Positions 34,507 to 35,335 of a stretch of 64,000 bases of DNA are shown piece by piece. The notes below the pieces were generated by a model. The model ran no database searches and was not told where the DNA came from. It saw only the letters and a program-made list of their open reading frames with translations. Where the stretch lies: assembly GCF_016903815.1 (NCBI RefSeq), contig NZ_CP069973.1; one strand, given 5' to 3'. The first letter of the stretch is position 1. Every line of letters starts with the position of its first letter. Origin of the DNA: Escherichia coli (lineage in GTDB: Bacteria > Pseudomonadota > Gammaproteobacteria > Enterobacterales > Enterobacteriaceae). Both the position numbers and the translations under genes were made by a program.

Positions 34507-34956
34507 TTACCTTGTCCAGTCATCAACCATTTTTTTCAGGGGGAACATCTGCAATACATTCATTAATGCGAAATATAATTCCCCCTGTGGCACCCATATT
34601 CTAATCTTCTCATCCCCTAAAATGAAAAATTGCAATTGACGTTTGAAACCTAATGTTTTATCTTCAGGTAATTCAGCTTGTATTTTTTTATTGATATCAT
34701 CAAGGTAGATGTGATGACAATACTCATCAAACATACTCATTACTTCCAGACCGTTTACAGATGTCCATCTTTGTTCACTTTCCCAATAAACAAGAACCGG
34801 TTTGCGGCAGGTATATCTGCCTAAAAAGCGCTGAATGTGTTCTTCCTGATTCTCGTAAAATATTGCCTCTGCATTCGAGATTTGCCGACGCATTCGCCAG
34901 CGGATTTTTTCTTCATAAAAAGACAATTTGTCGCATTTGGTATTACTCAAATTCAT
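34507..34956 (-). CDS. Hypothetical small protein (149 aa), island gene B; contains D-E-Y-C-H-H motif
   Basis: ORF-track start is TTG; internal ATG (MNLSNTKCDK...) preferred; that ATG lies 14 nt upstream of the stop of gene A. Confidence 0.5.
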   Translation of the reverse strand: MNLSNTKCDKLSFYEEKIRWRMRRQISNAEAIFYENQEEHIQRFLGRYTCRKPVLVYWESEQRWTSVNGLEVMSMFDEYCHHIYLDDINKKIQAELPEDKTLGFKRQLQFFILGDEKIRIWVPQGELYFALMNVLQMFPLKKMVDDWTR

Positions 34957-35335
34957 TGTCAACAACTCGCATGGTTTTAAATATAAAATTTAAAAAACCG
35001 CCAAACAAATGAAGTGAAATTTCATACTTCTTTGCCTTATAAACAATTACCGCATCTTTAATATTACCTGCATTTTGGTTATCTATAAGTTCAGCAATAT
35101 CCATAACCTGCGATAAATGTTCCACTCCCGTAAACTCGAACCTTTTTCGTTCCCTTCCGGCTGTAAATTCATCAACATAAAGTTCTGCCGTCAATATAAA
35201 ATTATACTCGGTGTGGTGACATTCCATTCTGGTTTCTACTAAAACACCATCATGCCAGATAATATTGTCTAAATTTTTCATACTATTAATCCAATCCATT
35301 ACTTTCTGATAAAATTTCCTCTGGAAGTTTTTCAT
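34943..35335 (-). CDS. Hypothetical small protein (130 aa), island gene A; contains M-E-C-H-H motif
   Basis: ATG-initiated ORF in AT-rich insert; first gene after hrpA terminator. Confidence 0.5.
   Translation of the reverse strand: MKNFQRKFYQKVMDWINSMKNLDNIIWHDGVLVETRMECHHTEYNFILTAELYVDEFTAGRERKRFEFTGVEHLSQVMDIAELIDNQNAGNIKDAVIVYKAKKYEISLHLFGGFLNFIFKTMRVVDNEFE

Follow-up and report, generated by a model that had tools for sequence, protein, structure and literature searches.

The island between ydcF and hrpA on the E. coli chromosome is probably an array without a toxin gene, made up of acquired immunity genes that are unrelated to one another and directed against polymorphic toxins. Each of its genes A, B and C would encode a small cytoplasmic protein that binds and blocks one specific toxin C-terminal domain (CT) from competitors (Rhs/T6SS or CDI-type delivery), and the carrier would be protected though not making the toxin. 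Homologues beside polymorphic toxin CTs were found for each of A, B and C. The sequence-only reading had guessed at an immunity-protein array, and this guess was supported by genomic context and fold, not by paralogy. We infer toxin binding and neutralisation, the toxin targets and expression in this strain; no cognate toxin was identified in E. coli. If the reading is true, about 11% of sequenced E. coli, the O157:H7 lineage included, would be protected against Rhs- or CDI-type toxins that they do not make themselves, which would matter for competition between strains in the gut. Three 'hypothetical' families would also gain a testable function, with three uncharacterised toxin domains as their partners.

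Position, composition and spread of the island

The window, that is the whole stretch of 64,000 nucleotides that was analysed, carries the genes of interest between ydcF (33094-33894, minus strand) and hrpA (35566-39468, minus strand). The features of the island and its border are as follows.

33972..35480, minus strand: island of low GC, with approximate break points taken from alignment with the empty site of BW25113
34010..34387, minus strand: gene C, 125 aa, predicted orphan immunity protein from a family of at least 62 representatives
34369..34491, minus strand: gene E remnant, a 40-codon ORF between B and C, the C-terminal tail of a fifth gene (family E, 138 aa elsewhere)
34507..34956, minus strand: gene B, 149 aa, ATG start, predicted orphan immunity protein with N-terminal helices and a PH-like beta sandwich
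34943..34956, minus strand: overlap of 14 nt between the B start codon and the A stop codon, read directly from the sequence
34943..35281, minus strand: gene A, 112 aa, predicted orphan immunity protein with a PIM7-like all-beta fold
35286..35420, minus strand: gene D stub, the first 35 codons of a 141-aa gene and 9 out-of-frame codons, a pseudogene with missing C-terminus according to PGAP
35510..35541, minus strand: GC-rich hairpin followed by a T-run directly after hrpA, read from the sequence, at the right-hand border of the island

The GC content of the island was 36-42%, against about 50% in the surrounding sequence. Alignment with the K-12-type strain BW25113 showed an hrpA-ydcF spacing of only 271 bp, and the island of about 1.5 kb in the window stands in place of about 150 bp of this spacer. 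The K-12-type genomes were without the island, which was present in 586 of 5426 complete E. coli genomes (about 11%, or 1 in 9). All matches were chromosomal, bar one in a record classed as plasmid, and the island was not found in a search of the plasmid collection. The O157:H7 strains carry a four-gene array at the same site, consisting of D (141 aa), A (112 aa), B (143 aa) and C (125 aa). All of the island genes are annotated 'hypothetical protein', and no literature combining hrpA, ydcF and immunity was found. An IS1 or IS200C element was inserted in the island region of some strains (e.g. NZ_CP173463.1 and NZ_CP173472.1).

Neither a toxin gene nor a secretion-system gene adjoins the array in the window, and we call the array 'orphan' because the window itself holds no toxin. 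The hairpin after hrpA is conserved in K-12 and O157; a simple terminator scan missed it, as its loop is larger than the limit of the scan. A terminator-like site inside the D stub was rejected, having 4 GC pairs only and lying at chance level. The promoter scan upstream of the array returned no convincing promoter-like site.

Genes A, B and C and the shared Cys-His-His tripeptide

The sequence-only reading took A and B for diverged tandem paralogues, with C as a more distant member and a common Cys-His-His (CHH) site for metal binding or catalysis, such as might be expected of a small family of enzymes or of an immunity gene that had been duplicated. The peptides on which it drew are present: gene A (minus strand, stop at 34943) contains DGVLVETRMECHHTEY and gene B contains NGLEVMSMFDEYCHHIY, and in both of them CHH is followed two positions later by an aromatic residue. 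The chance that one pre-chosen pair shares a tripeptide made of rare residues only is about 5e-4, a figure in favour of common descent that we discounted because the A/B pair was picked after reading the sequence and the motif is unconserved in either family.

However, A and B showed no relationship by sequence, profile or fold. The BLASTP alignment of A with B had E=2.5 and covered only CHH and a few further residues across a 10-residue gap, the Smith-Waterman score had z=1.67 and was reached by 8% of shuffles, and the two proteins had 5 tripeptides in common where 2.8 were expected (p=0.15). BLASTP returned no alignment for A with C or for B with C. The hhalign comparison between family profiles gave a probability of 0.3% for A-B, and of 0.4% and 0.2% for the other two pairs. 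The pairwise and profile alignments of A, B and C together thus showed no significant similarity beyond the A/B tripeptide, which is the outcome that the sequence-only reading had named as refuting it. The string WIHSF, which had been read as weak similarity of gene C, is present in C, but its kinship to A or B was not borne out, with no BLASTP alignment and hhalign probabilities below 0.5%.

An exhaustive phmmer search was performed with the D stub, A, B, the 40-codon ORF and C concatenated as the query (E<=1e-3). It returned 250 proteins, and each of the 150 matches listed fitted one segment only, none of them fitting both A and B. Among these 150 matches, at least 23 belonged to family A, at least 52 to family B and at least 62 to family C. 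A, B and C are three separate, widespread families, with kept residues WHDG and DN..AGN in family A, WT, IW.P and MFPL in family B, and DEGD, NS.Y..WF and HY in family C. A word-indexed search had found only Escherichia, Shigella and E. albertii for A, B and D, and the idea of orphan genes without a wider family was overturned by the exhaustive search.

Within these families the tripeptide itself was rare. CHH occurred in 3 of 25 family A sequences, all from Escherichia, and the columns otherwise held F/L/G, K/N and K/E. In family B only the E. coli sequence had CHH (1/52); the Cys column was Leu, Ile or Val in 43 of the 52, and the E. albertii B has LHY there. AlphaFold models of A and B, built on the family alignments, had pLDDT of 92 and 91. 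The model of A is an all-beta sheet with one short helix, while that of B has a PH-like fold plus an extra N-terminal helical segment, and the predicted folds thus differ, all-beta and PIM7-like in A as against helices and a PH-like sandwich in B. Judged by the secondary structure of the models only, CHH falls on residues 21-23 of A, at the hairpin turn that follows strand 1, and in B it is inside the strand 79-84, where consecutive side chains would face opposite sides; this placement speaks against a common site.

With CHH restricted to Escherichia sequences in both families and not conserved, the proposal of a common Cys-His-His metal site was abandoned, and we regard descent of A and B from one duplicated gene as extremely improbable. 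From the alignments, CHH appears to be a coincidence that arose recently within Escherichia. A rare tripeptide shared by adjacent small genes was no guide here to common descent or to a metal site.

The two genes are nevertheless tightly packed. The B ATG and the A TAA share 14 nt, ATGAATTTGAGTAA (34943-34956), and the same arrangement occurs in O157:H7, so the claim that B starts within the end of A was correct. Since this overlap is real and conserved, the coupled translation of A and B that had been proposed is plausible, whereas relatedness does not follow from it. Start/stop overlaps of 11, 20 and 4 nt were found between unrelated neighbours and are common in these arrays; the A/B overlap is therefore a matter of compact co-transcription, possibly with coupling, and not of relatedness. 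In the immunity-array reading, the overlap would come from cassettes packed closely in a single transcription unit rather than from common descent. The A-B junction also exists in E. albertii, where it is sometimes broken: an 84-aa frameshifted protein (P0046) joins the C-terminal part of A to the start of B.

The start of gene A that had been placed at 35335 (130 codons) is almost certainly an artefact. The homologues and PGAP all start with MKNLDN at 35281, and the longer form was rejected because the 18 codons that it adds are the gene D remnant read in the wrong frame.

Homologue neighbourhoods and predicted folds

The homologues of A, B and C occupy the immunity position, directly 3' of a toxin CT and co-oriented with it, in contrast to the toxin-less window. 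In one Sodalis genome (L030), a gene C homologue (P0041) begins 6 nt after a 557-aa toxin (L030:5321-6994) with an AVENNLLG motif. Three sister Sodalis genomes (L027-L029) have the same toxin N-terminus with another CT, followed by Imm42, and keep the displaced CT (a 207-aa ORF) and the C gene downstream as an orphan module. By sequence comparison, the two arrangements bear the classic CT-replacement signature of CDI and Rhs loci (PMC3150448). The N-terminal region up to VENN, about 390 aa, is common to both toxin versions in these Sodalis sp. genomes (CP178730-CP178739), and the VENN-motif toxin has no Pfam match on record. The N-terminal extension of a further protein, P0150, resembles the tail of the Sodalis CT that is paired with the C homologue. 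Other C homologues were found after cdiA-cdiI, beside Imm40 and DUF7674, and in an Rhs array holding a B homologue.

For family A, the homologue P0098 (L023) lies 43 nt after a VgrG-Rhs protein of more than 2000 aa with a CT past the DPMGL boundary, and DUF6714 comes next. The array around another member, P0040, comprises DUF596, CdiI_3(+B), Ank, A, E and C. For family B, the homologue P0024 overlaps the end of an orphan Rhs-CT past a DPLGL motif (L004, L007), in an array with Rhs fragments, CdiA_C, CDI_Immunity_Comp and DUF7674. This module of Rhs-CT and B homologue (L004) was absent from the complete E. coli genomes. In P0025/P0189 and at L003:624-1337, one polypeptide joins an N-terminal CdiI_3 domain to a family B domain, and NCBI names this fusion a CDI immunity protein. 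CdiI_3 (PF18616) and family B thus occur in the same arrays and are fused, but B itself has no CdiI_3 similarity, and the fusion is one of association, not homology. Across the arrays, the established immunity-type neighbours included CdiI_3, DUF596, Ank, Imm40, Imm42, DUF7674, DUF6714, LprI and CDI_Immunity_Comp.

A very similar linker precedes the variable domain in toxins of different classes. It reads NPNVGKDLTDEEKNELGGAGSGSPNGWGP(Q/E)DE in the orphan Rhs CTs of L004 (7547-8062 and 8615-9364) and KPNLGKDIAKAADAQKAELGGVGSGTPGGWGPEDEE in the Sodalis VENN toxin (L030:5321-6994). To judge from the sequence, this segment before the CT could serve these toxins as a common handle for recombination, or be related to entry.

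In hrpA 3' flanks of genomes with an HrpA 94% identical to that of the window, A, C, D, LprI, CdiI_3 and DUF596 occurred in other permutations. The gene orders were as follows.

hrpA 3' flank array: DUF596, CdiI_3, LprI, C, 142-aa gene
hrpA 3' flank array: D, A, 217-aa gene
hrpA 3' flank array: A, LprI, C, 141-aa gene

The scans of A, B, C, the D stub and intact D against Pfam, NCBIfam, PADLOC and PHROGs gave nothing significant, and the best match in a curated library was that of C to phrog_15075 (unknown function, E=0.0096). None of these five had a PADLOC match at E<=1. The members of families A, B and C showed no match in Pfam, NCBIfam or PADLOC apart from the CdiI_3 domain fused to B, which is also the only Pfam match in family B. 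No curated family matched the three neighbouring toxin CT domains, NCBIfam gave nothing for these or for the unnamed neighbour proteins, and a PDB sequence search with the family profiles and two of the toxin CT domains returned no meaningful match. As neither the three families nor the neighbouring toxin CTs have a curated match, the immunity link for A, B and C is one of position and fold only.

On the side of fold, the model of A is structurally similar to PIM7 (PDB 8owu chain E; bioRxiv 10.1101/2021.10.19.465003), which is the Bacillus cereus immunity protein against the DNase toxin PT7. The folds appear alike, but sequence identity in the structural alignment was 14% only, and the family A profile had no match among PDB sequences at E<=1, so there is no detectable sequence homology to PIM7. 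The settings differ as well: PIM7 goes with an LXG/T7SS toxin (bioRxiv 10.1101/2021.10.19.465003), whereas the link of family A is to Rhs/T6SS, and the Rhs CT before P0098 (L023) had no PDB sequence match at E<=10, the PT7-type DNase included. The model of B resembles bPH/YokE-like and eukaryotic PH/GRAM domains in its predicted PH-like fold. However, the Pfam bPH model matched neither B nor any of the 52 family B members, the N-terminal helices of B are additional, and the PH-like fold of B has no counterpart among solved immunity proteins.

The points counted against the immunity reading included a lone A homologue among housekeeping genes, the lack of a promoter-like site and the lack of a counterpart for the fold of B. 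The lone family A member (L019:6001-6345, in L019-L022) lies between an rsmE-like methyltransferase gene and a DUF1508 gene, in housekeeping surroundings with no toxin or other immunity gene nearby.

The order D-A-B-C could also be that of a co-operating multi-gene system, for instance a toxin-antitoxin operon or one for defence against phages, placed in a variable hot spot. Four co-oriented and tightly packed genes in a low-GC hot spot, the overlap of A and B, and the recurrence of adjacent D and A in another genus (46% identity for D and about 35% for A) would agree with this. We nevertheless consider it very unlikely: none of the four proteins matched PADLOC or resembles a known toxin or enzyme, and the families occur independently, in differing orders, with each of them found beside a polymorphic toxin CT.

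Toxin-less immunity arrays, termed 'acquired interbacterial defence', have been described in Bacteroidales. Under the immunity reading, the hrpA 3' flank may be a proteobacterial counterpart of these arrays, a conserved and toxin-independent collection site for acquired immunity genes across Enterobacteriaceae. A, B and C would then be the first members of three new immunity families, and their respective partners would be toxin domains not yet characterised (a GRHLHW-motif Rhs CT, an Rhs CT of about 100 aa, and a VENN-toxin CT ending in DGRPTLEIQ). We put forward this wider proposal tentatively, holding its chances to be slightly short of even.

The locus itself belongs to a well-known kind, of which it is a new case without annotation. 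CDI and Rhs loci are known to hold orphan immunity genes as well as orphan CT/immunity modules (Poole et al., 2011, PMC3150448). Like these, the array consists of small, unrelated, fast-evolving genes placed head to tail, its homologues lie directly after VENN- or DPxGL-delimited toxin CTs, and it shares with them CT displacement (in Sodalis) and a mixture with known immunity families. Unlike these, the E. coli array adjoins no cdi, rhs or T6SS locus and retains no piece of a toxin CT, it occupies a fixed chromosomal site (the hrpA 3' flank) common to Enterobacteriaceae genera, and its three families are absent from Pfam and NCBIfam.

Gene remnants and signs of decay

An ORF in another frame overlapping the start of A, MSKHDILMRSYYERIIELDC..., had suggested that gene A was once longer. 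The ORF exists, but has 44 codons (35286-35420) and not the 42 first given, and it is the N-terminal stub of an independent gene, D, which is intact in O157:H7. Alignment with O157:H7 showed that the window has lost about 290 bp inside D, with the first 35 codons joined out of frame to its last few bases. In O157:H7 the D stop lies 5 nt before the A ATG. As D is intact there and cut by a deletion in the window, a separate gene was lost and A was never longer; the same comparison ruled out A as a frameshifted extension of the upstream ORF. Among the 586 island-bearing genomes, D was intact in 335 and deleted or truncated in 251.

The 40-codon ORF between B and C is a second remnant. In L003 a family A gene is followed by a 138-aa gene, and the ORF matched the C-terminal end of the latter (BLASTP E=3e-5). 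The order there, A, E, C by HMM mapping, corresponds to that of the window, A, (B), E remnant, C. The frame of the E remnant is broken in O157:H7 by a stop codon and a 10-nt gap. The array would have been built and eroded cassette by cassette, with D shortened by deletion and E left as a 40-codon tail.

The C-terminus of B varies between lineages. A 2-nt indel near the 3' end of B (34507-34530 of the window against L002 4923-4950) gives ...MFPLKKMVDDWTR as the end of the 149-aa protein in the window and ...MFPMKNG as that of the 143-aa protein in O157:H7. The metagenomic variant P0013 (195 aa) has a Tyr codon in place of the B stop, and B continues into the E remnant.

The dN/dS values between the window and O157:H7, which come from small counts, were 0.60 for A, 0.44 for B and 0.27 for C, against 0.07 for ydcF. 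These values of 0.27-0.60 and the two remnants are compatible with decay. The island could be a decaying relic whose genes, once immunity or other genes, have lost their function or expression in E. coli and remain as nearly neutral sequence, as the truncation of D in 251 of the 586 genomes, the remnant of E, the 2-nt frameshift in B, the insertion sequences in some strains, dN/dS values above that of ydcF and the lack of an upstream promoter-like site would all allow. However, although the proteins have diverged by 40%, the frames of A, B and C are intact in E. albertii as well as in both E. coli lineages, and the residues that define the three families are retained. The dN/dS values are below 1, most clearly for C, and immunity proteins are expected to evolve fast. 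We therefore judge it unlikely that the array as a whole is a relic. The signs of erosion, namely the D deletion, the E remnant, the B indel, the IS insertions and the dN/dS values, leave room for partial decay of what is probably an immunity array.

Elsewhere in the window, three RNAs scored above the Rfam gathering score: a sok antitoxin RNA (28911-29062, plus strand) in a hok/sok-type locus near cybB, the RydC sRNA (29622-29685, plus strand) and the STnc490 sRNA (17834-17957, minus strand). Lower GC content (42-45%) was also observed at positions 18001-19000, 44001-47000 and 52001-56000 of the window.
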